A model generated the notes under the pieces. It saw nothing but the letters and a program-made list of their open reading frames with translations. It did not search any database and was not told where the DNA came from. This document shows positions 13,998-55,895 of a stretch of DNA of 64,000 bases, in pieces. This DNA is from a virus, in IMG/VR virus record IMGVR_UViG_3300024264_000015, positions 26,320 to 90,319 of that record; one strand, 5' to 3'. How positions within the stretch are numbered: position 1 is the stretch's first letter; each line of letters begins with the position of its first letter. A program made the translations under genes and the position numbers.

Positions 13998-14787
13998 TGG
14001 ACTCAATCTGGCTTTTCGATGGAAACACCAAGGTAATACTGACTTCGAGCATGATTATGTAAGAACTGTTCAGTCTTTGGCAAAGTCCTATAACTGTGGA
14101 GAGATAGTCGTTTTAGGCGACGGCGGTAGTAACTATCGTAAGGAAATCTATCCAGAGTATAAAGCAAATCGTAAAGAACGATATGCAGAACAAACAGAAA
14201 AAGAAGCAAAAGAATTTGAAATGTTCTTAGCAGAATTTTCAACTACTTTAAGTGCGTTAAAGCGTAAGGGATATCTTACGCTTAAATATCCTGGAGTAGA
14301 AGCTGATGATATTGCAGCTCTTATTTGTCAAAACAGAGAAGAGTTAGGTCTCGATGAGATTTGGATGATATCTTCAGATAGAGACTGGGATTTACTAGTC
14401 GATGGTAATATAAGTAGATTTTCTACAGTTACCAGAAAAGAAACAACACTCCTAAATTGGGACGAGCATTATGACTTTGACCCTGAGTACTTTTTAACAT
14501 ATAAGTGCTTAACTGGAGATAAAGGAGATAACGTTCCTGGTGTTGATGGAATCGGGCCTAAAAGAGCCACACAGATTATACAACAGTATGGAGATATCTT
14601 TGATATTATGGCGAGTTTGCCAATGGAAGGAAAGTACAAATTCATTCAGAACTTAAATGAGTTCGGAGAAGAAGGACTAGAGATTGGTATTAAACTCATG
14701 GATTTAACTTATGACGTAGACGGTGCTGTCTTAGGTCATGCAGAAGAAATTATAGGATTAGTAGAAGATTATGTCAGTAAAAATTGA
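13936..14787 (+). CDS. D15: flap endonuclease / 5'-3' exonuclease (D15)
   Basis: DGLNLAFR, YKANR, EADD, SSDRDW, GDKGDNVPGVDGIGPKRA. Confidence 0.93.
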   Translation: MAIQFMNHGKPTPNGNLLIVDGLNLAFRWKHQGNTDFEHDYVRTVQSLAKSYNCGEIVVLGDGGSNYRKEIYPEYKANRKERYAEQTEKEAKEFEMFLAEFSTTLSALKRKGYLTLKYPGVEADDIAALICQNREELGLDEIWMISSDRDWDLLVDGNISRFSTVTRKETTLLNWDEHYDFDPEYFLTYKCLTGDKGDNVPGVDGIGPKRATQIIQQYGDIFDIMASLPMEGKYKFIQNLNEFGEEGLEIGIKLMDLTYDVDGAVLGHAEEIIGLVEDYVSKN

Positions 14788-16543
14788 TTTTAGTAAAGAC
14801 AAACTTTTAGATGATTTTGCATTAGCAACTCTAAAAGATAGATATATGGTAGGTGATGAAACTTCACCACAAGAAGCTTTTGCTCGTGCTGCAATGGCTT
14901 TTGCAGATGATGACGACCATGCACAAAGGTTATATGATTATGTAAGTAAACTATGGTTTATGTTTGCTACGCCTGTATTATCAAATGGAGGTACTCGCAG
15001 AGGACTTCCCATTAGTTGTTTTTTGAACTATGTAGACGATAGTAGAGAAGGAATAACAGACCATTTTACAGAAAATGCGTTCTTAAGTTCTTTCGGTGGT
15101 GGTATCGGAGGACATTGGTCTGATGTTAGGTCTATGGGAAGTAAAACTTCTAAAGGGTCTGAATCGACTGGTGTGATACCATTCATGAAAGTGGTAGATG
15201 CAGAAATGCTTGCTTTCTCACAAGGGGTTACAAGAAGAGGAAGTTATGCAGCGTATCTACATATTAGTCACCCAGAAATAGAGGAGTTCTTAGATGGAAG
15301 AAAACCCACTGGTGGAGATGTTAATAGGAAGTTCACTAATCTGCATCATGGTATTGTTATACCTGATGCTTTTATGGAACTAATTCATAGAGCAAGTAAA
15401 GAAGAAGGCTTTGATGACTCTTGGGAATTAATTGACCCACATTCAAAAGAAGTAAAAAAAGTAGTATCTGCTAGAGCCTTATGGGTAAAGATATTACAAA
15501 ATAGAATAGAAACAGGAGAGCCCTATGTAATGTATGAAGATGCAGTGCAAAATGGATTACCTGAGTTTCAAAAAAGAAAGGGGTTACAAGTACATCACTC
15601 TAATTTATGTAGCGAAATTACTCTTGCTACTAATGAGGAAAGAACAGCAGTATGTTGTCTTTCTAGTGTAAATTTAGAGTATTATGATGAATGGAAAAAT
15701 CACCCTTCTTTTATCCCTGACTTAGTTAGGATGTTAGATAATGTATTAACATACTTTATTGAAAATGCACCTAGCCAATTAGATAAAGCTAAGTTTAGTG
15801 CTTACAGGGAGAGAAGCATTGGACTTGGCGCTATGGGGTTTCATGCATACCTGCAAAAGAATGGTATTCCATTTGAGAGTGCTATGGCAGGCGGTACTAA
15901 TTTAGAGATGTTTGCGTTTATAAAAAGACACGCAGACAACGAAACCAGAAAACTAGCAGCAGAAAGAGGCGCTTGTCCAGATGATGATTCTTGCACAGTA
16001 AGAAATGCTCATCTATTAGCGATTGCTCCTAATGCTAGTTCTAGTATTATTTGTGGAAACACAAGTCCAAGTATTGAGCCATTTAGAGCCAATGCTTATA
16101 CACAGAAAACAAAAACAGGAAGTAACCTAGTAAAGAACAAGTACTTAGATGCAATCATCAAAGAAAAAGTTACTCCTGAACTGTATGATGAAACATGGTC
16201 TAGTATAGTTGCGAACAAAGGAAGTGTTCAGCACTTAGATATACTAGACGAGTGGGAGAAAGATGTATTCAAAACAGCAGTTGAAATCAACCAGGCATGG
16301 GTAGTGGAACACGCTTCAGTCAGACAAGAATTTATTTGTCAGTCTCAAAGTGTGAATCTATTCTTTCCACCTGATGTAAATAAAGGGGATTTGCACAATG
16401 TACATATGTTAGCATGGGCAAAGAACTTAAAAACATTATATTACCTAAGAAGTGAAGCTATCGGACGTGCCGATAATGTATCTTCTCAGGCTAAAAGAGA
16501 GATAATCTTTGAACAATCAGATTGTCTAAGTTGCGAGGGATAA
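14771..16543 (+). CDS. nrdA: ribonucleotide reductase class I alpha subunit (no ATP cone)
   Basis: PISCF, SNLCSEI, VCCLSS, APNASSS, LYYLRS, C-terminal CLSCEG. Confidence 0.95.
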   Translation: MSVKIDFSKDKLLDDFALATLKDRYMVGDETSPQEAFARAAMAFADDDDHAQRLYDYVSKLWFMFATPVLSNGGTRRGLPISCFLNYVDDSREGITDHFTENAFLSSFGGGIGGHWSDVRSMGSKTSKGSESTGVIPFMKVVDAEMLAFSQGVTRRGSYAAYLHISHPEIEEFLDGRKPTGGDVNRKFTNLHHGIVIPDAFMELIHRASKEEGFDDSWELIDPHSKEVKKVVSARALWVKILQNRIETGEPYVMYEDAVQNGLPEFQKRKGLQVHHSNLCSEITLATNEERTAVCCLSSVNLEYYDEWKNHPSFIPDLVRMLDNVLTYFIENAPSQLDKAKFSAYRERSIGLGAMGFHAYLQKNGIPFESAMAGGTNLEMFAFIKRHADNETRKLAAERGACPDDDSCTVRNAHLLAIAPNASSSIICGNTSPSIEPFRANAYTQKTKTGSNLVKNKYLDAIIKEKVTPELYDETWSSIVANKGSVQHLDILDEWEKDVFKTAVEINQAWVVEHASVRQEFICQSQSVNLFFPPDVNKGDLHNVHMLAWAKNLKTLYYLRSEAIGRADNVSSQAKREIIFEQSDCLSCEG

Positions 16544-17506
16544 ATGAGCAAACTATTAGAAGAAAGAGATTATTATAAACCTTTTGATTATCCTTGGGCA
16601 TTTGAGTTTTACAAAAAACAACAACAAATGCATTGGCTACCTGAAGAAGTGCCACTCCAAGATGACATCAAAGATTATAATGTAAAACTATCAGAAGGCG
16701 AGAGGAAACTTATAGATAACATATTTAAGTTTTTTACACAAGCCGATGTAGATGTATGTTGTGGATATGCAAAGCATTATCTTCCAACATTTAAAGTACC
16801 AGAAATAAGAATGATGCTAGTAAGTTATGCTGCTATGGAAGCAGTACACCAAGAAGCGTATTCTTTATTGCTGGAGACATTAGGAAAATCAGATGACCAA
16901 TACACAGAGTTTTTTGAAATACAAGCTATGGCAGAAAAGCATGAGTATTTAACTGATTTTAATATGTCAAACCCACACGAGATTGCAAAGACAATGGCAG
17001 TCTATAGTGGTTTTACAGAAGGAGTACAACTATTTAGTAGTTTTGCTATCCTTTTAAACTATCCAAGACATAATCTTATGAAAGGTATGGGGCAGATAGT
17101 AACATGGTCTATAAGAGACGAGTCACTTCACGTTGAAGGATTATCAAAACTCTTTAGGGCTTTCATTGCAGAAAATCCAGAAATATGGACAGATAAACTA
17201 AAATATGAGATATATTGTGCAGCAGAGCGCGTTGTTGAATTAGAAGATAAGTTTATTGATGTTTGTTTTGATAAAGCAGATATCAAAGATTTAACAGCAA
17301 AAGAAGTGAAAGAATACATAAGATACATCGCCGATAGACGATTATTAGGTCTTGGTATGAAAGCAATATTCCATAGTACAGTTAATCCACTTCCTTGGAT
17401 TGATATGCAAGTAAATGCAGTTGAGCATACCAACTTTTTTGAAAACCGTGCTACTGAGTATGCTAAGGCTAGTACACAAGGCAATTGGCAGGATATATTT
17501 AAATAA
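16544..17506 (+). CDS. nrdB: ribonucleotide reductase class Ia beta subunit
   Basis: FFTQAD, EAVHQEAY (radical Tyr), EGVQLFSSF, RDESLH, NFFE. Confidence 0.95.
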   Translation: MSKLLEERDYYKPFDYPWAFEFYKKQQQMHWLPEEVPLQDDIKDYNVKLSEGERKLIDNIFKFFTQADVDVCCGYAKHYLPTFKVPEIRMMLVSYAAMEAVHQEAYSLLLETLGKSDDQYTEFFEIQAMAEKHEYLTDFNMSNPHEIAKTMAVYSGFTEGVQLFSSFAILLNYPRHNLMKGMGQIVTWSIRDESLHVEGLSKLFRAFIAENPEIWTDKLKYEIYCAAERVVELEDKFIDVCFDKADIKDLTAKEVKEYIRYIADRRLLGLGMKAIFHSTVNPLPWIDMQVNAVEHTNFFENRATEYAKASTQGNWQDIFK

Positions 17507-17718
17507 TGAATAATTTACCAGAGTCCATAGAAATCGATGGTGTAACGTATTATACTGATGATATGGCAGAAAACCAAAGGCTTATTCTACTAGCTATAAG
17601 TCAATGTGATATAGAGTTAGATAGAGCAAAGCACATGATGGCTATTTGCCAAACAGCGAGACAAGCATATATAAATGATTTAGGTACACAACTTAAAGAA
17701 GATGCAAAAGAATCTTAG
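17506..17718 (+). CDS. small hypothetical protein (DUF6447-like)
   Basis: IEIDGVTY...followed by a helix ending QTARQAYINDL. Confidence 0.55.
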   Translation: MNNLPESIEIDGVTYYTDDMAENQRLILLAISQCDIELDRAKHMMAICQTARQAYINDLGTQLKEDAKES

Positions 17719-19021
17719 ATTTTATATATTAGTAACTCATACTTTACACAAGGTTCAAAGACACTTTTCTTACTCAGGAATACAACCTAAGGAAGCTATG
17801 GTAGTTATAAATACTACTAATGATGTTTTCTATAAACAATGTAGCAACTGGTGTGAATCGCAAGGCATACCATGGATTCGTACAGAATCTGATGGTACAC
17901 CTGCGACTGGAAAGAATAGTGTCTTGGATTTGTTTTTAAAAAGTAAAGATGATTATATGGTAGCTGTAGATGGTGATGATTATATCACTAAATATGGCTA
18001 TGCTTATTATAAAAATGTTGTAAACCAAGATAACACCCCCGATAGTTTATGTCTATATAAACAACAATCCCAACTAATCACCATTTTTGGTCAAAGAATA
18101 TGGATTAATCTTATGGGACTCCCCACAGATTTAGATACTGAAATGCATATACGTAGAAGTCATTTAATGGGAGAAGTGTACGCACACCATTTAAAAGATT
18201 ATTATGAAGAAAAGTATGGAGACCTAGAACTATATGTAGAAGATTGTTTGAAACATACAAAAGAAAATTTATATTATGTCTATAAGTATTATGAAAGATA
18301 TAAAATATATGATAACGATTTTGCAGAATCTCATTGTAGACCTGTATTGTTTTCCAAAGCAGCAGCAAAAGAATGTCATTTTCCTAGTAATGTACCTGTA
18401 GGAGAAGATACTTTAGTATATTTACAACTTAAAAATGCACATTTTCAAGGAAGAATACATACTGAACTAGTAGATGAACTAAAAGAAAATATGACTTATC
18501 TTTATGACTGTATAAAAGCGGACGGAGACGATTTAGGAGCTATGCTAGGAATTACTCTTAATCAGACAGACTATACTTGGGTACGTTTAATAAATATAAA
18601 ATTAAAAGAAATGGAACAAAAAGGAGAGTTACATGCTATTCCGCTACCTGTAAATAATTGTTTACCAAGTAAGTGGAAAAAAGATAACATAATACCTGCA
18701 AGACCCCAGTTTCCTCTTGATTTTAATTTAAAGAAATGGGATGAAAGATGGGAAGACAAACCCCAATACGATAAACCAAGTGATAAAGCTATGGAATTAA
18801 TAGATAATATAAGAATGTGTGAGTATTATGCGTCTACGGAATCTGGAGTAGTATTGCAAATAATAGAACAACAAAAAGAAAACAAAAAACAATTATTAGA
18901 AGTTTTAGGCCTAAGTCCTAATGCTATGGTCAAGTTTCCTAAAGGCTACTTTAAAAACTCTAGACCTTACTTTCACCACGCTACTCCTCAAGAAGTAGCA
19001 CAACTTTATCCAAAATCATGA
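17702..19021 (+). CDS. GT-A glycosyltransferase-like protein
   Basis: VVINT, SDGTPATGKNSVL, VAVDGDD (DxD), VGEDTL. Confidence 0.6.
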   Translation: MQKNLRFYILVTHTLHKVQRHFSYSGIQPKEAMVVINTTNDVFYKQCSNWCESQGIPWIRTESDGTPATGKNSVLDLFLKSKDDYMVAVDGDDYITKYGYAYYKNVVNQDNTPDSLCLYKQQSQLITIFGQRIWINLMGLPTDLDTEMHIRRSHLMGEVYAHHLKDYYEEKYGDLELYVEDCLKHTKENLYYVYKYYERYKIYDNDFAESHCRPVLFSKAAAKECHFPSNVPVGEDTLVYLQLKNAHFQGRIHTELVDELKENMTYLYDCIKADGDDLGAMLGITLNQTDYTWVRLINIKLKEMEQKGELHAIPLPVNNCLPSKWKKDNIIPARPQFPLDFNLKKWDERWEDKPQYDKPSDKAMELIDNIRMCEYYASTESGVVLQIIEQQKENKKQLLEVLGLSPNAMVKFPKGYFKNSRPYFHHATPQEVAQLYPKS

Positions 19022-19647
19022 AAATCTTTATAGGTTATGAATCTGCATACCCACAAATGTTTGACGTCTGTGCAAAAAGCATAAATCGTTACAATTCCAA
19101 TCATGAAATCATACCACTCAAAAAATCGGAAATATCCGAATATACTCGTCCTTTTCAGAACGAGAGTACAGAGTTTGCCTTTACTCGTTTTCTAGTACCA
19201 CAGCTCTGTGACTACGAAGGGGAAGCTTTATTCTGTGATGGAGATTTCTTATGGCTCTGTGACCCTGAAGAAGTTATGGATTATTTTTCCGATGAACATA
19301 CAGTTCATGTGGTAAAACATCCTAGTTTCCTCGTCAAACCTAAGAAAATGAAAAACAAGAAAAACCATGCTTATCCTAGAAAATACTGGTCAAGTCTTAT
19401 GCTTTTCAATAATCCTAAGTGTAAAGAACTTACTTATGATTATGTAAACCAAGCCCCAGCGGGTGCATTGCATGAGTTACATTGGGCAGATAGTATAGGG
19501 GAACTTCCTGCGCAGTATAATGCCATGGTAAATTATTACAAATTCAAGAGACCAAAAGCACTCCACTATACAGACGGCGGGCCTTGGTTAAATATAAACG
19601 AGTGTTCGGAGTACACAGCAAAATGGATGACACTTTACAAAAGTTAA
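19018..19647 (+). CDS. glycosyltransferase (GT8-like)
   Basis: KIFIGY, STEFAFTRFLVP, FCDGDFL, YPRKYWSSLMLFN, HYTDGGPW. Confidence 0.8.
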   Translation: MKIFIGYESAYPQMFDVCAKSINRYNSNHEIIPLKKSEISEYTRPFQNESTEFAFTRFLVPQLCDYEGEALFCDGDFLWLCDPEEVMDYFSDEHTVHVVKHPSFLVKPKKMKNKKNHAYPRKYWSSLMLFNNPKCKELTYDYVNQAPAGALHELHWADSIGELPAQYNAMVNYYKFKRPKALHYTDGGPWLNINECSEYTAKWMTLYKS

Positions 19648-20273
19648 CAGAAGATAAAAATATTATACTTGTGGGAAATTCAGTGGAAATGTTGGAGCAT
19701 GAGTATGGGGAGTACATAGAAAAGTTTGATACAATTGTACGATTTGGAAATGGTATACCTGATAAACACCCTAAGAATATGGGCACTCGCACAGATATAT
19801 GGATTACAGGGTGGCTTCGTATGATTAAACATAAACATTTTCCAACCGCGTATAAATTATTCAATCGTTGCAGAATACACTTGGATATAAAACCTAAAGA
19901 AATGAAACCTGAGTTTGAATATGAGACTATGTTCGATGATGACGAATTAAAAAATATTTATAAAATGGTAGGGGCAAAGAATAATGTGAAGATGGGAAAT
20001 AGACCGAGTGCAGGTTTCTTAGGTATATTATTTTTTCTTACTAAAACCAATCCTAAGTCAATTACTCTAATTGGCTTTGACTTTTTCTCTAAAAAATTAC
20101 CTTTTAAAAGTGGCAATGATTACCCTGCAAGTTGGCATCTACCACACAATTCACAAGAGGCTAGTCCGCATAATATTATGGAAAAACCACTTGTGCAAAA
20201 ATGGGCAAAGGAAGGTAAGTTGAAATGGAAAATCTTATCTGACTTGAACGAAGAGTTCTTAGATTTTTCCTAG
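19623..20273 (+). CDS. GT29/sialyltransferase-like protein
   Basis: IILVGNS...IEKFDTIVRF...GTRTD (sialylmotif L-like), PSAGF, LIGFDFF (S-like). ATG at 19623 preferred. Confidence 0.7.
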   Translation: MDDTLQKLTEDKNIILVGNSVEMLEHEYGEYIEKFDTIVRFGNGIPDKHPKNMGTRTDIWITGWLRMIKHKHFPTAYKLFNRCRIHLDIKPKEMKPEFEYETMFDDDELKNIYKMVGAKNNVKMGNRPSAGFLGILFFLTKTNPKSITLIGFDFFSKKLPFKSGNDYPASWHLPHNSQEASPHNIMEKPLVQKWAKEGKLKWKILSDLNEEFLDFS

Positions 20274-21239
20274 TTTATATCCGACTTCAATTAATTTTCT
20301 TGATACTTGTTTCTGTTTATTTGATTTAAATAATAGAAGTTCGTTGAGTCTAGCATTTCTTAAATTTACAGGTATGTTCGGTATCTGTGCAGTCCACAAA
20401 TCCCAAGGTATTCCTAATTGTACTCCTGCAGGTAGATACTCATATTTTTTAAGTAACCACTCTGGTTTTACATGGACACTAAATGCTTTTCTCATAATTA
20501 CATTGTGATTAATAAAGTCTTTTGTATTTAGTGCTTCGTAAGTAAGAAGTTTATCATTTTTACCGTTTACATAAACTGGCATTGCTTTTCCTCTGTAATG
20601 AAACTTCTCAAAGAAAGACTGATTCCAACTACCCATAACTCTTCTATCTATATGATGTGGATAGAGTACAGGATTGATTCTATTAGTCTGACCTCTTGCA
20701 AATAGTAATTTTTCATCGAAAGTAACCATTTTATCCCAATTTATAATAAAGAACTGGGGGTCAACCATACCTTTACTTACAGTTTCTTTTCTACCTACAT
20801 GCTCTTCTTCAAACATTTGACTTTTCCAACCTAAAATATCATAGTACTTTTTATAAGTAGGATGGTCTTTATAGACATGATTATGGCTATATAAAACAAA
20901 TTTATCATCAAAGTATTTATTATCAGGTAATTCGTTTTTCCAATTATTTCTTAAGAATATTCTTGCACCACCTGCGTACATAACTCTTTTGTTTAGTCCG
21001 CCTTTATCTTTCCAATACTCTTTTAAGTATCTTATAGCTCTAGCTTGTTCTTCACCTTTCCAGAAACTTTGATATACTTTTACGTTTTCTATATTACTTA
21101 TTACCCACTCTACTACACTTTTATCCCAGTCATCTTCGTGAATAAATAAATGCAAGCGAAAGTCCTCGTCTTTCTCAATCAGAGAAGCAAGTGTAAATAA
21201 ACTAAAATCTTTTATGTATGTATGTACTATCTCAATCAT
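20259..21239 (-). CDS. hypothetical protein, possibly a divergent GT-A glycosyltransferase
   Basis: N-terminal FTLASL...FRLHLFI pattern resembles GT8 N-termini; no clear DxD; lies within the GT cluster. Confidence 0.45.
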   Translation of the reverse strand: MIEIVHTYIKDFSLFTLASLIEKDEDFRLHLFIHEDDWDKSVVEWVISNIENVKVYQSFWKGEEQARAIRYLKEYWKDKGGLNKRVMYAGGARIFLRNNWKNELPDNKYFDDKFVLYSHNHVYKDHPTYKKYYDILGWKSQMFEEEHVGRKETVSKGMVDPQFFIINWDKMVTFDEKLLFARGQTNRINPVLYPHHIDRRVMGSWNQSFFEKFHYRGKAMPVYVNGKNDKLLTYEALNTKDFINHNVIMRKAFSVHVKPEWLLKKYEYLPAGVQLGIPWDLWTAQIPNIPVNLRNARLNELLLFKSNKQKQVSRKLIEVGYKLGKI

Positions 21240-22143
21240 CTTGTTTTTTATATTCCCAAAAATTATTTATAAACCTTTCAAGTCTTTCTTCAGCATCGTC
21301 ATCAAAATCAAATATGATTCCTGAATTTTTTGCTGATAGAATCTTACGTATAGTATGCGAGGCTTTTGTCCCAGATACTGCATGGTAAATGCTTTCGTAT
21401 GTTAATAAATTCTTTTCTCTTTCTTTTTTAGTATGACTTATCATACCAAGTTTTTTGTTTAATAATAATGCTACTATGCCCATTTCACTGTTTGGCATTG
21501 TAGCAACTTCTTTACAGTTGTATAAAATTTCATGCCCACTTTGTTTTTTATTTAATACTTTATCTGCTCCAAAATCTTTTTTAAATTTAGCCATATAAAG
21601 TGCATTAGTGATAGGATGTGGTTTTATTACATAACCTTGTTTTATGTATTCTCTCATTCTACCCCAATGTATAACTCTATCTTTACATATTAAATTACTA
21701 CCTGGTGGAAAAATTACTTTATCATAATGTTCTTGTGTTTGTGCTAAAATGTATTTATCTTCTATACAATTTAGTATTTTTTCTATTCTTTCTTCGTCAA
21801 TTTCTATATCTGAATTAGCAATAGATAGCATTAACTTATCGTTAATTTTTATGGAATTTGTTTTTACATAAATTCCTCTACCTAAAAAATCTGTGTATAA
21901 CCACTTTCGTATTGTAAACAATTCATTTGTGTTAAACCAAACGTCATATTCAAATCTAACACCTTCTCTCCACTCTGGTATTACTCTTTGTTTGAACTTT
22001 AGTAATGCGTCTCTTTGATGGTCGGGTCTATAGCAAGAGCCTGATTTCATAAAGTGAGTAACCTTATCTCCAAGACTCTCATTACTTGCCATCGGAACTA
22101 ATTTATCTTTTTTGACTGGACTTTTATTTATTTTTAGTTCCAT
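21232..22143 (-). CDS. capsule-synthesis (KpsC/KpsS-like) GT-B protein
   Basis: YVIKPHP and VATMPNSEMGIVALLLNKK resemble the KxHP and T-x-NS-x-x-G-x-EAL motifs of that family. Confidence 0.55.
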   Translation of the reverse strand: MELKINKSPVKKDKLVPMASNESLGDKVTHFMKSGSCYRPDHQRDALLKFKQRVIPEWREGVRFEYDVWFNTNELFTIRKWLYTDFLGRGIYVKTNSIKINDKLMLSIANSDIEIDEERIEKILNCIEDKYILAQTQEHYDKVIFPPGSNLICKDRVIHWGRMREYIKQGYVIKPHPITNALYMAKFKKDFGADKVLNKKQSGHEILYNCKEVATMPNSEMGIVALLLNKKLGMISHTKKEREKNLLTYESIYHAVSGTKASHTIRKILSAKNSGIIFDFDDDAEERLERFINNFWEYKKQDD

Positions 22144-22282: not shown

Positions 22283-25200
22283 TTATTCTGTCCATGTTGA
22301 ACCGTCCCAGTAACTTGCACTAAAGTCGCTTATACTTGCGACTTCCGTGTCAAAGATTGTACCCGCCTGAGACGCTGTTATTCTTTCAAATACTGTGGTA
22401 CTCGTATTAAATGTAGTTGTGGTAAGGTGGTCAGTATCTCTAGTAGTTTCTGTTACCTTACCTGTGGCAAATGTTGTGGTTGTTGTTTTGCCTGTTTCAA
22501 ATTCTGTTGTTCTAGTAGTTTCAAAAGTAGTTGTTGTGTCATACGCTGTAGACTTAGATGTCGTTGTAGACCTATTTGTCTCAAATGTAGATACTGTACT
22601 TCTGCTTGATGCTGTATCTCTTGCAGTAAGTGTTGCTCTAGCAGTATTAAATGTACTTGTAGTTTCTCTACTAGATTGCGTAGCTCTAGTGGTTATTGTT
22701 CCTAAAGTTGTAGCATATACTGTTGTTGTATCTCTACTTGTAGTTGTTCCTCTAGCTGTATTGAACGTAGTAGTAGTTGCTCTAGAAGTTCCTGTTACTC
22801 TTTGTGAGCCTCTACTTGTTAAGTATGCTGTTTCATATGCAGTACTTCTTGATGTGTTTGTATTTCTAGTAGTTCCGAATGATGTATTATCTACATACGC
22901 TGTTGTTCTTGAAGTTTCTGTTCCTCTGCTTGTATTTGTGCTTCTACTTGTATTTGTACTTCTGCTTGTTGTAAATACTGTATTATCTACATATGCTGTT
23001 GTATAGTTTGTATTTACTAAGAATACAGTAGTGAAATTAGTACTATCTACGTATGCGGTTGTTCTTGTAGTATTCGTATTTCTTGTAGTTGCAAAACTTG
23101 TATTATCTACATAGGCTGTTGTTCTACTTGTTTCAGTAGTTCTAGAAGTGTTTGTTGCTTGTGTAGTTGTATATGCAGTTTCATTTGTAAATGATGTATT
23201 ATCTACATATGCTGTTGTAAATGATGTATTATCTACATACGCTGTTGTTCTTGAAGTATTTGTGCTTCTTGTAGTTGAGAATGAAGTATTATCTACATAA
23301 GCTGTTGTAAATGATGTATTATCTACATACGCGGTTGTTCTAGCTGTATTTGTACTTCTTGTAGTTGAGAATGAAGTATTATCTACATATGCTGTTGAGA
23401 AACTTGTATTATCTACATATGCTGTTGTTCTAGCTGTATTTGTGTTTCTTGTAGTTGCAAATGCAGTGTTATCTACATATGCTGTTGTAAATGAAGTGTT
23501 ATAACTTGTGTTGTTTGTAAATCCTGTATCTCTACTTGTGTTAGTGGCTTGTGTTGTATTATATGCTGTGCTATTTGTAAACCCAGTATTTCTACTTGTA
23601 TTCGTTGCTTGTGTTGTATTATATGAAGTAGAGTTTGTAAAGCCTGTATTTCTACTTGTATTTGTAGCCTGTGTAGTTGTTCTAGATGTATTCGTGTTTC
23701 TAGAAGTGTTTGTGTTTCTACTTGTATTTGTTGCTTGCGTAGTATTGTAAGCAGTATTTCTAGAAGTATTCGTGTTTCTACTTGTATTCGTTGCTTGTGA
23801 AGTATTGTAAGCAGTATTAAATGAAGTATTATTTGCAAATCCTGTAGACCTAGTTGTATTATATGAAGTATTACGTGCACCAGTTGCTCTAGTTGTATTT
23901 ACTTGTCTAAATGCTGAACTTGCAGAAGTACCTGTTCTTCTTTGATAAGTTCCAGAATATCCACTATTCTGACCACCACCCCAGCCGGAATAATAGTTTC
24001 CTGGGCTAGACCAGTATACTGTAGTAATTCTATTGTAGTAATAAGTCAGGTATGAAGTAGAGTCTGTAGTTGACCTTGTAGTTCCATAAGAAGTATTCCT
24101 ACTAGTATTTGTACCTCTAATTGTACCTCTACTTGTACCAAATGATGTGTTATCTACATAAGCTGTACTGTTTGTAAATCCTGTACCTCTAGTTGTTCCG
24201 AATGAAGTGTTGTCTACATATGCTGTACTATTTGTAAATGAAGTAGAGTTTGTAAATGAAGTACTAAAAGATGTGTTGTCTACATATGCAGTGCCTCTAG
24301 TTGTATTTGTATTTCTTGTTGTACCAAATGAAGTGTTATCTACGTATGCAGTACTTCTACTTGTGTTTGTATTTCTACTTGTTCCAAAAGAGGTGTTATC
24401 TACATAAGCAGTAGACCTACTTGTATTTGTACTTCTTGTTGTGCTTCTTGTTGTACTTCTCGATGTATTTGTTGCTTGAGTAGTTGTATACGAAGTAGAG
24501 TTTGTAAATCCTGTAGACCTAGAAGTATTTGTAGATTGTGTAGTTGTTCTAGATGTATTTGTTGCTTGAGTAGTTGTATACGAAGTATTATTAGTAAATC
24601 CTGTACTTCTACTTGTATTCGTAGACTGTGTAGTTGTTCTACTCGTATTAGTAGATTGTGTAGTATCATAACTTGTATTGTTACTAAATCCTGTACTTCT
24701 ACTTGTGTTAGTAGACTGTGTAGTTGTTCTACTTGTGTTTGTACTTCTAGCTGTATTTGTATTTCTTGTTGTACCAAATGAAGTGTTGTCTACATATGCT
24801 GTTGCTGTTCCATATACAGTAGTTCTAGAAGTGTTTGTTGCTTGTGTAGTTGTATACGAAGTAGAGTTTGTAAATCCTGTGTCTCTTGATGTATTTGTAT
24901 TTCTACTTGTAGTTACACTTGTATTAGAAGCTCTAGAAGTTGTTCTACTCGTATTAGTAGATTGTGTAGTATCATAACTTGTATTATTCGTAAATCCTGT
25001 ATTATCTACATAAGCTGTTGATGTATTATATACAGTAGTTCTAGAAGTGTTTGTTGCTTGTGTAGTTGTATACGCTGTCTGGTTTGTAAATCCTGTAGAC
25101 CTAGATGTACCAATTACAGTATCAAAACTTGTAACATATGTTGTAGTTGTATTGTAGTTGGTAGTAGTGCTACGTGCGGTATTAAAGGTCGTAGTAGTTG

Positions 25201-25699
25201 TATACGTAGTAGTAGTATCGTGACTTGTTAAAAAAGTGGTTGTAGTTGTATACGCTGTTGTAGTATTAAATACTGTTGTAGTACCTTGTGTAGTTGTAAA
25301 GGTAGTTGTAGTATTGAATGTTGTAGTAGTTGTAAATAGAGTTGTAGTTGTAGTGGTTGTATTATATGTTGTAGTCGTATTGTGAGTAGTGCTTCTACTT
25401 GTATTCGTAGCTCTATCCGTATCAAATGTTGTTACTCTATCTGTGTTATATGTTGTTGTTGTGCCACGAGTTGTATCAAATCCAGTAGTCGTATTAAACG
25501 CTGTTACCTGTACACCTGATATGGTAGTTCTAGCTGTTGCTGTATTTCTTGAAGTTTCGTGAACGACAGAAAATGGCCCTTCTAGAGCACCACTATCGTT
25601 TACGTATACTTCATTAACCCTTCGTATTGTGCCATTGTCGTTGATGGCGAGAAAGGATATCTGACGTAATGTACCATTGTCATTAACATATATTGCCAT
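22283..25699 (-). CDS. 1138-aa Thr/Ser/Asn-rich self-complementary repeat protein; predicted giant beta-hairpin fibre
   Basis: 4/6-residue units mirrored about residue ~577 with aromatic versus Arg/Gln/Lys complementarity; located at the end of the tail-fibre block. Confidence 0.85.
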   Translation of the reverse strand: MAIYVNDNGTLRQISFLAINDNGTIRRVNEVYVNDSGALEGPFSVVHETSRNTATARTTISGVQVTAFNTTTGFDTTRGTTTTYNTDRVTTFDTDRATNTSRSTTHNTTTTYNTTTTTTTLFTTTTTFNTTTTFTTTQGTTTVFNTTTAYTTTTTFLTSHDTTTTYTTTTTFNTARSTTTNYNTTTTYVTSFDTVIGTSRSTGFTNQTAYTTTQATNTSRTTVYNTSTAYVDNTGFTNNTSYDTTQSTNTSRTTSRASNTSVTTSRNTNTSRDTGFTNSTSYTTTQATNTSRTTVYGTATAYVDNTSFGTTRNTNTARSTNTSRTTTQSTNTSRSTGFSNNTSYDTTQSTNTSRTTTQSTNTSRSTGFTNNTSYTTTQATNTSRTTTQSTNTSRSTGFTNSTSYTTTQATNTSRSTTRSTTRSTNTSRSTAYVDNTSFGTSRNTNTSRSTAYVDNTSFGTTRNTNTTRGTAYVDNTSFSTSFTNSTSFTNSTAYVDNTSFGTTRGTGFTNSTAYVDNTSFGTSRGTIRGTNTSRNTSYGTTRSTTDSTSYLTYYYNRITTVYWSSPGNYYSGWGGGQNSGYSGTYQRRTGTSASSAFRQVNTTRATGARNTSYNTTRSTGFANNTSFNTAYNTSQATNTSRNTNTSRNTAYNTTQATNTSRNTNTSRNTNTSRTTTQATNTSRNTGFTNSTSYNTTQATNTSRNTGFTNSTAYNTTQATNTSRDTGFTNNTSYNTSFTTAYVDNTAFATTRNTNTARTTAYVDNTSFSTAYVDNTSFSTTRSTNTARTTAYVDNTSFTTAYVDNTSFSTTRSTNTSRTTAYVDNTSFTTAYVDNTSFTNETAYTTTQATNTSRTTETSRTTAYVDNTSFATTRNTNTTRTTAYVDSTNFTTVFLVNTNYTTAYVDNTVFTTSRSTNTSRSTNTSRGTETSRTTAYVDNTSFGTTRNTNTSRSTAYETAYLTSRGSQRVTGTSRATTTTFNTARGTTTSRDTTTVYATTLGTITTRATQSSRETTSTFNTARATLTARDTASSRSTVSTFETNRSTTTSKSTAYDTTTTFETTRTTEFETGKTTTTTFATGKVTETTRDTDHLTTTTFNTSTTVFERITASQAGTIFDTEVASISDFSASYWDGSTWTE
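22439..25498 (-). repeat. mirror-symmetric array of 12/18-bp (4/6-aa) units, e.g. TNTSR, AYVDNTSF, GFTNSTSY, TTTQ
   Basis: Direct reading of the translation, residues 68-1087. Confidence 0.9.
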
Positions 25700-25925: not shown

Positions 25926-28900
25926 TTATACCTCTATTGTTGTTCTTATGAACTTGTATGCCATTGTGTCTGCACTTGCTGGCGTTACTCTTAATCTTAC
26001 ATTACCTGCACTTACATCTGCGTCAAATGTTGCTTGTGCTCCATTGTCAAAGATAGACGCGTACTGTGTTAAGTATACATCTGACCCATCATGGAATAGG
26101 AAAATTTCTAATGCTTGATAATCTGAATCTGTTGTGTTTTTAATCTGTACTACATATTTAGCAGTTCTAAATACAGTAGTTGCAAAACTATCTAGTGTAA
26201 ATACTGTCGTTGCAGATGAACTTCCTGTACCAACATCCATACCAGCTACTTCGTCTATGTGAAGTTTTTGTGGTGGATTAGTGTCTTGAATACCTATGCT
26301 ACCTGCTACATTTACTTTATTAGATGTGCTTCCACCAAACCCTAAATCTCCTCCAAATGTAATACTTCCTGTCATTGTTTTACCACCAAGTGCTGCACTT
26401 GATAATTGTGTAGTTGTTATAGAGTTATTTGCAATCTCACTTGACCCAATAGCGTTTGCTGCTATTTTACTGGCGTCTATAGCATTGTCTTGAATTTTTG
26501 CAGTTGTTACTGAATTACCAGCTAATTGTGCTGTATTAATTAGACCATCTTGTATAAAGCTAACGCTATTTATTGCGTTTGCAGCTAGTTGTGTTGCTGT
26601 GATAGAAGCGTTTGGTATTTTTGCAGAAGTAATAGCATTATCAGCTATCTCTACTGCTGTTATTGTACCATTTGGTATTTTAGCACCTGATACAGAGTTA
26701 TCAGCTAATTTACCTACTGTTACTGCTCCTGTGCCTATTTGTTCTTCTGTTACTGCACCTGAAGCTATTTTGTTTACTGTTACGGAGTTAGAACCAAGTT
26801 TTGCTTCTGTTACAGAACCAGTTGATAAATGAATAGCATCTATACTTCCTGTTACTAACTCTGCTGAATCAACGGAGTTAGAAGCAATATGTCTGGCTAG
26901 TACAGCGTCTGTTGCTAGTTTAGTAGCATCTATTGAGTTGTCAGCCATATTGCCTGTAGCAATAGTATTGGCTGCTATTTTTCCTGTTGTGACCGAGGCG
27001 TCTGCTAGATGCTCGTTATCTATACTTCCTGCAACATAATGTTCTGAATTTATAACATCATCTGCTATTTTTGTGCCGTCTACTATGTCTGCGGCTAAAT
27101 GTATTCTGTCTATACTGCCTGATACGAGTTCTGAACTGTCTACAGAGTTTGCTGCTAAGTGTAATGCTCCTACAGAGCCAGTAATTAATTCTGAAGCTCC
27201 GACAGCATTTGCTGCTATCTTACTAGCGTCTACAGCATTTGTTCCTATTTTTGCACTTATTACTGCACCAGAAGCTAACTGTGTAGAGCCTACTGCTCCT
27301 CCAGCTATTTCTGCAGCTCCTACAGCATTGTCTGCTATATGAGAAGCATCAATAGACCCTGTTGATATTTTATTAGCATTTATTGCGTTATTTGCAATGT
27401 TTGGCCCTGTAATAGTTTCTGAGCCTACTTTGGCACCAGTGACTGCGTCATCTGCTAAGTGTATAGTATCAATGCTACCTGTCACTAATTCTGCTGAATC
27501 TACTGAGTTTGCTGCTAGTTCACTTGCTGTTATGCTTCCTGCGACTATCTTACTTGCATTTACTGTGTTGTTTGCAATCGCACTTGCTGTTCCTGTTAAG
27601 TTACCTGTAACGTTGCCTTCTACATTTGCTACTATAGTACCTGTTGTAATTGTTAGGTCACCTGTTGAAGCACCTGTAAATGTGCCTGTACCTACTTTAA
27701 ATTTATCTTCACTTTCATCAAATCCTATAAATGCGTTATTTGAATCTCCTCTTTCAATTACTATACCAGCGTCTCCATTTGGAGACCCTGTTGTACCTGT
27801 ACCTAATTCTAATAATGGGTCAGATATTGTAGTTGTAGTAGAGTTAACAGTCGTTGTTGTACCGTTTACTGTTAAGTTTCCTGAAAGTGTAACGTTTCCT
27901 GTGAATGTTTGACCACCTAATGCATCTGATTTAAGTTCAGAAGCTGATACTGCATTTGCTGATATTTCACTGTTACCAACTGCATTTGCGGCTATCTTTG
28001 CTCCTGTTACAGCATTGCCTGCTATATGTATTGCATCAATAGAGCCAGAGATTAATTCTGCGCTGTCTACTGAATTGTCTGCTAGTTCGCTTGAACCTAC
28101 AGCACCTGCATTGATGTGTCTTGCTAGTATTTGGTCTGTTGCAATTTTTGCTGAAGTAACTTGGTTAGCTGCAATATGTATTGTGTCAATACTACCAGTT
28201 GCTATTTCTGAACTATCTATTGAGTTTTCAGCTATATGTGTTACATCTATAACACCTGTACCTATTTTTGCAGCAGTGATTGAATTATCCCCTAAATGTA
28301 TAGTATCTATACTACCTGTTACTAACTCTGCTGAATCTACTGAGTTTGCTCCTAAGTGGTCTGCTGTTATTGTTGCTGTAGGTATGTGTCTTGCAACGAT
28401 TGAATTTTGTGCTATCTTAGTTCCGTCTACTGCGTTATCTGCAATATTGGCTAAGGCTATTGTATTGGCGGCTATTTTTGCGCCTGTTACTTGTAAGTTT
28501 CCTATATGTGCAGTATCTATACTACCATCTACTAAATGTTCTGAATCTATTGAGTCATCTGCAATTTTTGAGCCACTTACTGCATCCGCTCCTATTTTTC
28601 CACTAGTTACTGCTCCTGTACCTATTTTTGCTTCTGTTACTTGTGAAGCTCCAATATGTATAGTATCAATGCTACCTGATACAAGTTCAGAACTATCAAT
28701 AGAGTTTGCAGCTATTTGTGTAGAACCTACACTATTAATTCCTACATTGGAACTATTTACTATTGCTGTCCAACCCATGTTAGCGTGTGCTGAACATTGG
28801 TAATACAATATTTGAGGAGTAGTACTCGTAACGGCAATTTCTGTGTATGCACCTGAACTTCCTGCTGTTCCGTTATTTGTAACTCCTGTAGTATAAGCCG

Positions 28901-53843: not shown

Positions 53844-55895
53844 TTAACTACCTTTATACATCCAACCCCACTTAGAAGTTGCACCGTCAATTAAGTCAGT
53901 GAATCCTAATCTCTGAGAAGCCACTAGGACTCTTCTTTGATTAGCTACTTCGTAGTCTGATTCAATTGTAACACCTCTTAATCTTGGCATTACATAGTTT
54001 CTTGGGTTAACAGCGATAGCTGCGAACTTAGATATTGCTGGTGCAGCAAACTCGTCACACATTAAGACTCTAGAGCCATAAACCTGTCCGATTTCACCGT
54101 TTAGCTTAGTAGCCATGTCGCCAACTAGGTTAGCGTCTTGGAACTCAGCATCTTCTAATAGTTCATAGTAAGACCTTTGTGAAACAATATATACTACTTC
54201 ACTTGGATTTATACCATATTTACCCATATTCTTTCTCATTTCAAGTAAGTCAGAAGCTACAATTTTATCAGTAGCAAAAGCTGTTGCTGATTGTGTGTAG
54301 TCACTGTCATTTCTTGCTAAGTGTAGTAAACCTTCGAAGGTTGCTTGTGATGTACCATATACACCGTCAGCGTCATCACCAGCTAGGATAGCATTTTCGA
54401 TACCTCTAGCGTGTGCTCTAACCATTGATTCTCTAATTAAAGGAAGAATCGGTAAGATTGCATCTTCTTCAGTTTCGTTACCTAAGTAAGATTGTGAGAT
54501 TAATTTTTTGGTTGAAAGAACTCTTTCAGTCATATCTACCCCACCTGCTGAACCAGGGTTATAAGAATCCCCTCTTTCTTGCAAGTTACCATGTGGTGAA
54601 GCACCACTAGCTGCTTGGTTGCCTGTAAATTCAGCATAACCAGCATCTGGTAAGATTGGGATAATCATATTAGCGGAATTCATAGCTATTTCTCTAAATA
54701 GAGGTGCTAATACTAATTCGTTTTGAATATCTCTTTCGATTTGTGTTGATACGATTTGCTCAAAGTCTGCTGAAGAAACGCCAACACCACTATGTGCGTT
54801 AACTTTTTCCATTAAACCTTTTGCATAATCACTGTTCCATCCTTTACCAGTCGCTAAACCAGCAAATTTTGCGTCAATGATATCATTCTCGTAAGCTTTT
54901 TTCCAGTCGCCTTGACCTTGTCTGTCCGCAAAGATTCTTTTTGATTCTCTGATTGACATGATTTCTTCTGATTTCTCAGCTAGTTGTTTCTCTAATGAGT
55001 CTACAACTGTTTTTAAGTCTTCATGTTTTTCAGAAACTCTTTTCTCTACGTCATTCATTAATCTTTCAGCGCCAGTTAAACCAGCTTCGATAATAGTTTT
55101 TTGCTCGTCCTGTTTTGCTTCTTGAACAGCCTTTTCATTAGCCTCTACTTCAGCTTGCTTTTCAGCCTGCTCTTGTAGTGCTTTTTCGTCTGCTGCTTTC
55201 TGCTCGGCTTGCTTCATAGCAATTTTAGCAGCTGTATCTTCAGCTACTTTCTTTGCAAATGCTTCCAAGTCGATTGAAGTTTCAGGAGATTTTTTCTCTT
55301 CTGACATATCAGTCTCCGTTGATGAGGATTTCTCCTCGCTTGGCTGCTCAATTTTAACAGCGTCTGCTGCTGCGGTTGAGTTAGCCTGTAATATTTCTTT
55401 TTGGTACTTTCTGTATTCATCCATACTATCAAATGACTTGCTTAAGCCAAAGGTTGCCCCTTGGTTGCAAGGTACTGATACTACAGACACTTCAAAAAGT
55501 TCCGCGTCTTTAATTTTGAATCCATCACTTTCAACCATGTATTCAGAATCTTTACATCTGAATCCAACTGAAAATGCTCCCAGGACTCCATCTTTCACTA
55601 AATGAGTAATGTCACCTGCGGCTTTTGATATCTTTGCAGTGATATCTAAACCTTTATCAGTGACCTCTAAACCAGTTGCTCTACCGATAGGTTTGTTGTA
55701 GTCGTGGTTAAAAAGAATGATTGGATTACTTTTGAAGTTTTCCAGTCCCCCTTTTGTCCATGCCTCGCTTTCGATTATATCTCCAGCTCTATCTAGTGCA
55801 TTTGTACTTGCAGAACCTTTGATGTTTATTCCACCATCTTCGGTTTCGCCTAGTGATTTAAAAGTACTCGTCCAATGATAAATTTTATTCGACAT
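53844..55895 (-). CDS. prohead protease + scaffold (delta) + HK97-fold major capsid protein in one ORF
   Basis: Protease ILFNHDYNKPIG, AFSVGF, ELFEVSVVSVPCN; coiled-coil delta region; T5 pb8-like ETEEDAILPILPLIRE. Probable internal start at 55307. Confidence 0.9.
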   Translation of the reverse strand: MSNKIYHWTSTFKSLGETEDGGINIKGSASTNALDRAGDIIESEAWTKGGLENFKSNPIILFNHDYNKPIGRATGLEVTDKGLDITAKISKAAGDITHLVKDGVLGAFSVGFRCKDSEYMVESDGFKIKDAELFEVSVVSVPCNQGATFGLSKSFDSMDEYRKYQKEILQANSTAAADAVKIEQPSEEKSSSTETDMSEEKKSPETSIDLEAFAKKVAEDTAAKIAMKQAEQKAADEKALQEQAEKQAEVEANEKAVQEAKQDEQKTIIEAGLTGAERLMNDVEKRVSEKHEDLKTVVDSLEKQLAEKSEEIMSIRESKRIFADRQGQGDWKKAYENDIIDAKFAGLATGKGWNSDYAKGLMEKVNAHSGVGVSSADFEQIVSTQIERDIQNELVLAPLFREIAMNSANMIIPILPDAGYAEFTGNQAASGASPHGNLQERGDSYNPGSAGGVDMTERVLSTKKLISQSYLGNETEEDAILPILPLIRESMVRAHARGIENAILAGDDADGVYGTSQATFEGLLHLARNDSDYTQSATAFATDKIVASDLLEMRKNMGKYGINPSEVVYIVSQRSYYELLEDAEFQDANLVGDMATKLNGEIGQVYGSRVLMCDEFAAPAISKFAAIAVNPRNYVMPRLRGVTIESDYEVANQRRVLVASQRLGFTDLIDGATSKWGWMYKGS

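Follow-up and report, generated by a model that had tools for sequence, protein, structure and literature searches.

Long antiparallel hairpins whose two arms change length together are known from chemoreceptors (methyl-accepting chemotaxis proteins, MCPs), in which the length of the signalling hairpin varies between lineages by symmetric insertions or deletions (indels) on both arms (PMC5907407). Among phage appendages, chains that run to the receptor-binding tip and back as antiparallel beta strands have been described for the gp37 needle at the tip of the phage T4 long tail fibre (PMC9659904), and Thr-rich hydrophilic repeats are reported to favour beta-hairpins (PMC11936462). Here we analyze a gene on a stretch of 64,000 nucleotides (nt), hereafter the window, which is part (positions 26,320 to 90,319) of the ~90-kb IMG/VR viral record IMGVR_UViG_3300024264_000015, 86% complete by CheckV. 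The gene, which we call the hairpin gene (22283-25699, minus strand), is an open reading frame (ORF) of 1138 amino acids (aa), 35% of them Thr, in the tail module of an uncultured marine T5-like phage. The two halves of its product mirror each other, its tandem arrays stand at mirrored sites, and the indels that separate its lineages form palindromic sets, suggesting that the length of a phage fibre evolves by matched changes on two arms. A literature search for chain-long fold-back beta-hairpin fibres or mirrored tandem arrays found no report of either.

When each residue i of the window protein is paired with residue 1155-i, 105 large-residue coincidences are found between the halves, compared to 77 for the next-best constant. 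With strong residues only, the same constant gives 92 coincidences, versus a mean maximum of 36±5.5 after 1000 shuffles of the C-arm spacings (highest, 52), and the best direct-repeat offset, with 51, lies inside this shuffle null. Mirror constants were determined by dynamic programming (DP) and Viterbi; a local window scan was dropped, since periodic ties confound it. The mirrored DP alignment follows one single diagonal, on which residues 54-547 (the N-arm; 24059-25540, minus strand) face residues 1101-608 (the C-arm; 22397-23878, minus strand). Across these 494 mirrored positions, 90 aromatic residues face Arg, Lys, Gln, or His, no aromatic faces another aromatic, and two pairs are cation-cation. 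Moreover, 95 of the 98 mirrored large-residue pairs, aliphatic ones included, share one parity, that is, one face of a beta strand, and on the N-arm the large residues of this face follow a 4/6 spacing. Mirror pairing ends at an aromatic/Gly-rich, nonrepetitive tip with GWGGG at its centre (residues 548-607; 23879-24058, minus strand). An inverted repeat in the DNA of the gene was looked for and not found. The original prediction, made from the window sequence alone, had proposed mirrored arms with an implied constant of 1152; the arms stand, with a register corrected by three residues. These features suggest a beta-hairpin fold, in which the central segment, lineage-specific and rich in Gly and aromatic residues, may be the receptor-binding tip.

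The mirrored register extends well beyond the window. Scanning IMG/VR with the N-terminal module of the protein gave 108 loci, from which we obtained 53 unique complete proteins, ranging from 742 to 1621 aa, and one more with 3108 aa. In all 54 homologues, the best mirror constant equals the protein length (L) plus 15 to 18, and the arms are equal to within a few residues. The 3108-aa homologue (L111; G001:C1:10900-20400, minus strand) aligns on one diagonal at residues 59-1557, with 223 aromatic-cation pairs and no aromatic-aromatic pair; with its ~1500 mirrored residue pairs, it would be roughly 0.45-0.5 micrometre long if fully extended.

Tandem arrays on the two arms obey the same register. 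A triplicated 30-aa unit had been predicted on each arm, and both are present: three copies of TTTQSTNTSRSTGFxNxTSYxTTQxTNTSR on the N-arm (residues 325-414; 24458-24727) and three of TAYVDNTxFxTTRxTNTxRTTAYVDNTSF on the C-arm (residues 738-827; 23219-23488). Tandem Repeats Finder (TRF) places 90-nt periods at 24463-24742 (3.1 copies, 82% matches) and 23190-23502 (3.5 copies, 87%). A separate scan for arrays delimits an N-arm type-A array of 3.2 copies (residues 319-414; 24458-24745, minus strand), which mirrors to residues 741-836, and a C-arm type-B array of 3.5 copies (residues 734-837; 23189-23500, minus strand), which mirrors to 318-421. Closer to the tip, an N-arm array of 20-aa type-B units (residues 424-478; 24266-24430, minus strand) faces a C-arm array of 20-aa type-A units (residues 675-729; 23513-23677, minus strand; mirror image 426-480), each with 2.8 copies. 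Type-A units (TTQ..NTSR/STGF..TSY) always stand opposite type-B units (TAYVDNTSF/TTR.TNT.R), both types being present on both arms, and at the constant 1155 each 30-aa unit forms six pairs (Q-F, R-Y, F-R, Y-R, Q-F, and R-Y). Thus, the observation of mirrored arrays in the hairpin gene is confirmed, and the proposal that the expansions are paired at two mirrored loci without being copies of one another is supported.

Dispersed duplicates on the outer arms show a similar correspondence. TTVY occurs at residues 221-224 and 293-296 of the N-arm (24812-25039, minus strand) and TETSR at residues 855-859 and 927-931 of the C-arm (22907-23137, minus strand), in both cases 72 aa apart. The predicted facing of these two rare tokens is borne out by the pairs Y224-R931 and Y296-R859, and TETSR is found at residues 855 and 927 only, but TTVY also occurs at residues 559 (tip) and 992 (C-arm). 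Within the 20-aa arrays, the units are self-complementary (Y3-R19 and F9-R13; Q3-Y19 and R9-F13), and such units, being self-complementary, might be tolerated as side hairpins when unpaired. We rejected a main fold made of local mini-hairpins, one for each unit folded back on itself, since the 30-aa units are not self-complementary and the palindromic indels and equal arms would be left unexplained.

The copy number of the window arrays is not a product of assembly. The three copies on each arm differ at 7-28 of 90 nt, mostly at synonymous sites, and no 55-mer repeats were found within the gene; since collapse or expansion by an assembler would leave identical copies, the triplications are not assembler duplications. 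Consistent with this, pieces of the gene are matched with no differences and no indels by Logan contigs from four runs of four studies, which, because they were built with k=31, break inside the arrays and do not confirm the order of the copies. Mirror symmetry could otherwise reflect chance in a low-complexity protein, a direct duplication of half the gene, or an assembly artefact, and the high Thr content, the 4/6-residue motifs, and the presence of both unit types on both arms would suit such an origin. However, the shuffle null lies far below the observed value and contains the best direct offset, the copies are all distinct in DNA with pieces that recur in four studies, and the rule is kept in 54 sequences, leaving these explanations with virtually no chance of being correct.

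Arrays are matched across the family as they are in the window. Their periods are 16, 18, 20, 22, 28, 30, 32, 44, and 52 aa in different lineages, and 59 of the 79 N-arm arrays, which come from 25 lineages, have an array at the mirrored site, with the same period (±1) in 55 of the 59. Among the 43 array pairs selected for agreement in copy number within 1, the mean difference is 0.24, and the boundaries are offset by a median of 3-4 residues. The N-arm arrays for which no partner was detected are, for the most part, old and diverged, with a period of 22 aa and a place on the outer arms. One clade (L074, L083-L089, L103, L078, L104, and L107) has 21-aa N-arm units (NTALAAVNTSY) opposite 20-aa C-arm units, with a one-residue bulge per unit, 3-6 per protein, and an aliphatic-aliphatic pair in place of F-R. 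Fibre-length tuning by matched changes, as proposed in the original prediction, thus holds across the 742-3108-aa family.

Pairwise alignments of lineages that are 86-96% identical (4-14% diverged) reveal how matched the differences in length are. Read from the N terminus to the C terminus, the indels between the window and L030 are +20, -18, -6, and -2 on the N-arm and -2, -6, -18, and +20 on the C-arm; those between L049 and L046 are -6, +6, and -12, then -12, +6, and -6; those between L065 and L050 are +20 and -28, then -28 and +20; and those between L046 and L053 are -20 and +12, then +12 and -20. The arms are also balanced within 1 aa in L083/L085, L103/L078, and L100/L108, and in 9 of 10 comparisons overall both arms differ by the same net amount to within 1 aa. 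The expectation that an indel on one arm always has an equal one at the mirrored site is thus borne out by palindromic sets between lineages but not by L038 and L041, two identical sequences from two samples (3.7% diverged from L037) that carry an unpaired 20-aa unit beside a paired 4/4 indel. Contig pairs that are at least 99.9% identical, in contrast, differ by whole-unit indels on one arm only, with 30 aa missing from the N-arm in L034, 20 from the C-arm in L056 and L060, and 20 from the N-arm in L057 and L086; the L084 variant has -40 on the N-arm and +20 on the C-arm. Unpaired indels, which would speak against paired expansion if they were common, are therefore common only among such near-identical contigs, where they may be assembly errors, and not among fixed differences.

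The picture that best fits these data is of a long fibre whose chain would run out to the aromatic/Gly-rich tip and then back, residue i pairing with residue 1155-i. One face of the resulting ribbon would set each aromatic opposite Arg, Lys, Gln, or His, with Thr between, and the other would be formed by Thr, Ser, and Asn. Because pairing depends on arms in register, a change in the length of one arm must be matched at the mirrored site, and the mirrored 30-aa and 20-aa arrays would be the record of such matched changes. Whole units would be gained or lost on each arm separately, with slippage or unequal recombination inside the array of that arm as the cause. The one-arm variants so produced would be short-lived, ending in their removal or in a compensating second event on the opposite arm, while recombination between alleles would also move balanced central segments. 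Fibre length would, as a result, be adjustable by 2 to 32 residues per arm at a time. Antiparallel-paired arms, independent gain and loss of units on each, and selection for register, together with intragenic recombination, are probably the correct explanation, as far as sequence comparison can tell. The order of the mutational events, the oligomeric state, and the role as a virion fibre are what we infer from this pattern.

Facing units could instead be duplicated or deleted together, by a dedicated or single-event coupling. Such coupling would account for the close match of period, copy number, and boundaries in facing arrays, and for the small indels of 2-6 aa that the palindromic sets contain besides whole units; in addition, third-position identity is correlated between the two members of the 43 array pairs (r=0.44). 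However, this age correlation is gone under within-protein permutation (p=0.15), the loci lie 0.5-4 kb apart in direct orientation without an inverted repeat at the DNA level, and one-arm variants exist. In the window, moreover, the N-arm copies (69-86% nt identity) are more diverged than the C-arm copies (84-92%); dating by synonymous divergence had been suggested as a test, and these values indicate that the arrays are old but do not demonstrate that they are of equal age. We compared unit-to-unit distance matrices between N-arm and facing C-arm units for 14 arrays with at least 4 units. Amino-acid distances correlate under the mirrored mapping (mean r of 0.52; permutation p<0.001) and much less under the direct mapping (0.12), whereas synonymous-site distances give 0.27 for the mirrored (p=0.007) and 0.24 for the direct mapping. 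Since both synonymous mappings exceed the null equally, they reflect the similarity of neighbours in tandem arrays and carry no mirror-specific signal. A mirror signal in amino acids but not at synonymous sites suggests selection and not a shared mutational event: facing units co-evolve as proteins, and silent sites hold no record of shared duplications. Coupled duplication is thus a very improbable source of the matched arrays. The two mechanisms offered in the original prediction fared differently, in that one-arm intermediates followed by compensation are favoured and a coupling mechanism is not needed; its interpretation as a whole is partly supported.

Recombination may have a larger share in this history than the proposed mechanism assigns to it. 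In a hairpin topology, the inner N-arm, the tip, and the inner C-arm are contiguous DNA, so that a double crossover can swap a balanced cassette, and most paired differences between lineages could then stem from recombination and not from two new mutations. This possibility complements the explanation that we prefer, since the arrays must still have been built once. Mosaicism is evident in the window allele, in which identity to L030 is 96-99% over the first 200 codons and identity to L033 is 94-97% over the last 240, indicating recombination breakpoints inside the arms. Consistent with cassette exchange, all eight indels between the window and L030 lie within residues 450-736, around a tip (79% nt identity) that is more diverged than the outer arms, and in the family as a whole each lineage has its own tip, in contrast to the conserved outer arms and termini. 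However, recombination explains neither the origin of the matched arrays nor the differences in copy number, with both arms carrying, for example, 3 copies in the clade of the window and about 4 in that of L035, and crossovers at nonmirrored sites would yield unbalanced chimeras. We give a modest chance, well short of even, to recombination as the source of most paired differences.

Several points weigh against the proposed scheme of paired arms adjusted one at a time. The arrays of the one-arm variants contain repeated 31-mers, making assembly mis-joins possible, and if these variants are artefacts, direct evidence for intermediates is down to one lineage. L056 and L060 share an identical 60-nt deletion on different single-nucleotide-polymorphism backgrounds, in a population of seven contigs differing by 0.4%, which is either recurrent slippage or recurrent assembly error. 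The remaining lineage, L038, is harder to call an artefact, because its extra copy was seen twice and its partner array has only 71% DNA identity, with a longest exact run of 15 nt. The synonymous-site test is low in power, with 4-13 units per array, and co-timing of the paired arrays is neither shown nor excluded. Structure prediction gave no support for the fold, AlphaFold2 returning a mean predicted local distance difference test (pLDDT) score of 28 for the whole protein (12-row alignment) and a pLDDT of 28 for a tip fragment (residues 490-665); a complex prediction of residues 1-200 against residues 955-1138 scored 0.00 and carries no weight either way. Furthermore, the constraint that i+j be constant is identical if the mirrored halves pair between two head-to-tail chains, in an antiparallel dimer or higher assembly. 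Against this topology, complementarity ends in a lineage-variable 60-residue Gly/aromatic segment, as it would at a turn or tip, and a fibre presumably has to attach to the virion at one end and to a receptor at the other, as a hairpin could do with both conserved termini together. Pairing between chains is unlikely, and pairing inside one chain appears the better reading.

The likeness to chemoreceptors lies in the symmetric indels, seen here as palindromic sets and as equal arms in 54 sequences. The chemoreceptor hairpin, however, is an alpha-helical coiled coil of cellular signalling that varies in 7-residue steps (the length classes of Alexander and Zhulin), whereas the window family is Thr-rich, with beta-type alternating faces, a 4/6 spacing, steps of 2-32 residues that are often whole array units, and an aromatic-to-Arg/Gln code along whole arms, reaching 1500 residues. 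Consistent with this, the window protein has no Pfam match to the MCP signalling domain, its composition is rich in Thr, Ser, and Asn, and it shows a two-residue alternation, unlike a heptad-periodic coiled coil. The gp37 needle of Bartual et al. 2010 is reportedly a short trimer segment with core iron bound by histidines. In contrast, the window protein has 4 His in 1138 aa, none of them periodic, its hairpin would span nearly the whole chain, and homology to gp37 or related fibre families was undetected in Pfam, PHROG, and PDB. Nor does its C terminus match Pfam at E values up to 1, save for weak, sub-threshold domains of unknown function, so that the cleaved intramolecular chaperone domain of T5 pb1-type L-shaped tail fibres was not found. 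Since the defining features were tested and not found, the window protein is a member of neither the chemoreceptor nor the gp37 class.

Two further comparisons place the family. As in compensatory covariation of RNA stems, antiparallel pairing would constrain two distant segments of one gene, compensation accompanies fixed differences, and unpaired states show up solely as young variants; here, however, pairing would be between amino-acid side chains, the DNA not being self-complementary. The Thr-rich hairpin designs noted above (PMC11936462) are short and synthetic or in silico, while here a natural phage family has hundreds of pairs per chain. Matched two-arm indels are already known for alpha-helical chemoreceptors, but our literature search turned up no description of such indels in a beta-type fibre, in tandem arrays, or on a comparable scale. 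The family may represent a structural class new among phage fibres, in which a beta-hairpin of 350-1500 residue pairs takes up the whole chain, with an aromatic-versus-Arg/Gln code and a compensated length evolution like that of RNA stems; we put this at slightly less than an even chance.

The genomic setting is that of a phage fibre gene. Within the tail module, the tape measure and a J-like gene precede the hairpin gene, which has a 1291-aa phrog_892 tail-fibre gene upstream and a phrog_26179 gene on its other side. The capsid-protease fusion, major tail protein, and tape measure of the window resemble those of T5-like siphoviruses; as in T5-like phages, a 683-aa protein (53844-55895, minus strand) has matches to prohead protease as well as major head protein families. 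The conserved N-terminal module (residues 1-53; 25541-25699, minus strand) consists of three tandem VNDxGTLR-type repeats, has 63-75% identity in metagenome fragments, and weakly matches phrog_13729 (E value of 4.8e-6). It is common to small phrog_13729 phage proteins of 160-195 aa, some with signal-peptide-like starts. Speculatively, three repeats within one chain might stand in for a trimer where the protein attaches. The C-terminal module (residues 1102-1138; 22286-22396, minus strand), with 64-72% identity in metagenome fragments, is kept in all loci.

Searches of Pfam, PHROG, and PDB with the whole 1138-aa protein found no relative, and neither DNA nor the N-terminal 60 aa matched any GenBank phage. 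A homologous-protein search with the whole protein likewise gave no match, probably with low-complexity words swamping the index, and an exhaustive HMMER search returned only terminal fragments and spurious repeat proteins. Matches in the ESM Atlas were viral clusters without names only, and the hairpin gene occurs in sequencing runs of at least 13 studies, the runs being seawater or marine metagenomes.

Several neighbouring features complete the description of the locus. Directly downstream of the Thr/Ser/Asn-rich fibre gene, an ORF at 19584-20273 (plus strand) matches the Pfam glycosyltransferase family 29 (sialyltransferase) with 28.5 bits against a cut-off of 23; its neighbours (17702-19647, plus strand, and 20259-22143, minus strand) have a sub-threshold match or none. 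Genes for the large and small subunits of ribonucleotide reductase (14771-17506, plus strand) form an opposite-strand unit adjoining the glycosyltransferase-like genes. Long antisense or alternative-frame ORFs inside the hairpin gene (22395-23006, 24476-24781, and 23508-23750, all plus strand) are most likely by-products of its ACN/AAY-rich codon composition and not genes.

The hairpin family offers a natural experiment in protein-level compensatory evolution, whose rules (binary pairing code, mirror register, and step sizes) are legible from sequence alone. The mirror test, with a best i+j of about L+16, provides a simple means of recognizing an otherwise unannotatable family in marine viromes. 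If the proposed pairing is true, the family would embody a natural programmable rule for building a ribbon of chosen length, and this rule could inform the design of beta-ribbons with a defined length. For the phages themselves, matched changes on two arms would explain how an appendage protein can vary four-fold in length, from 742 to 3108 aa, with its fold retained.

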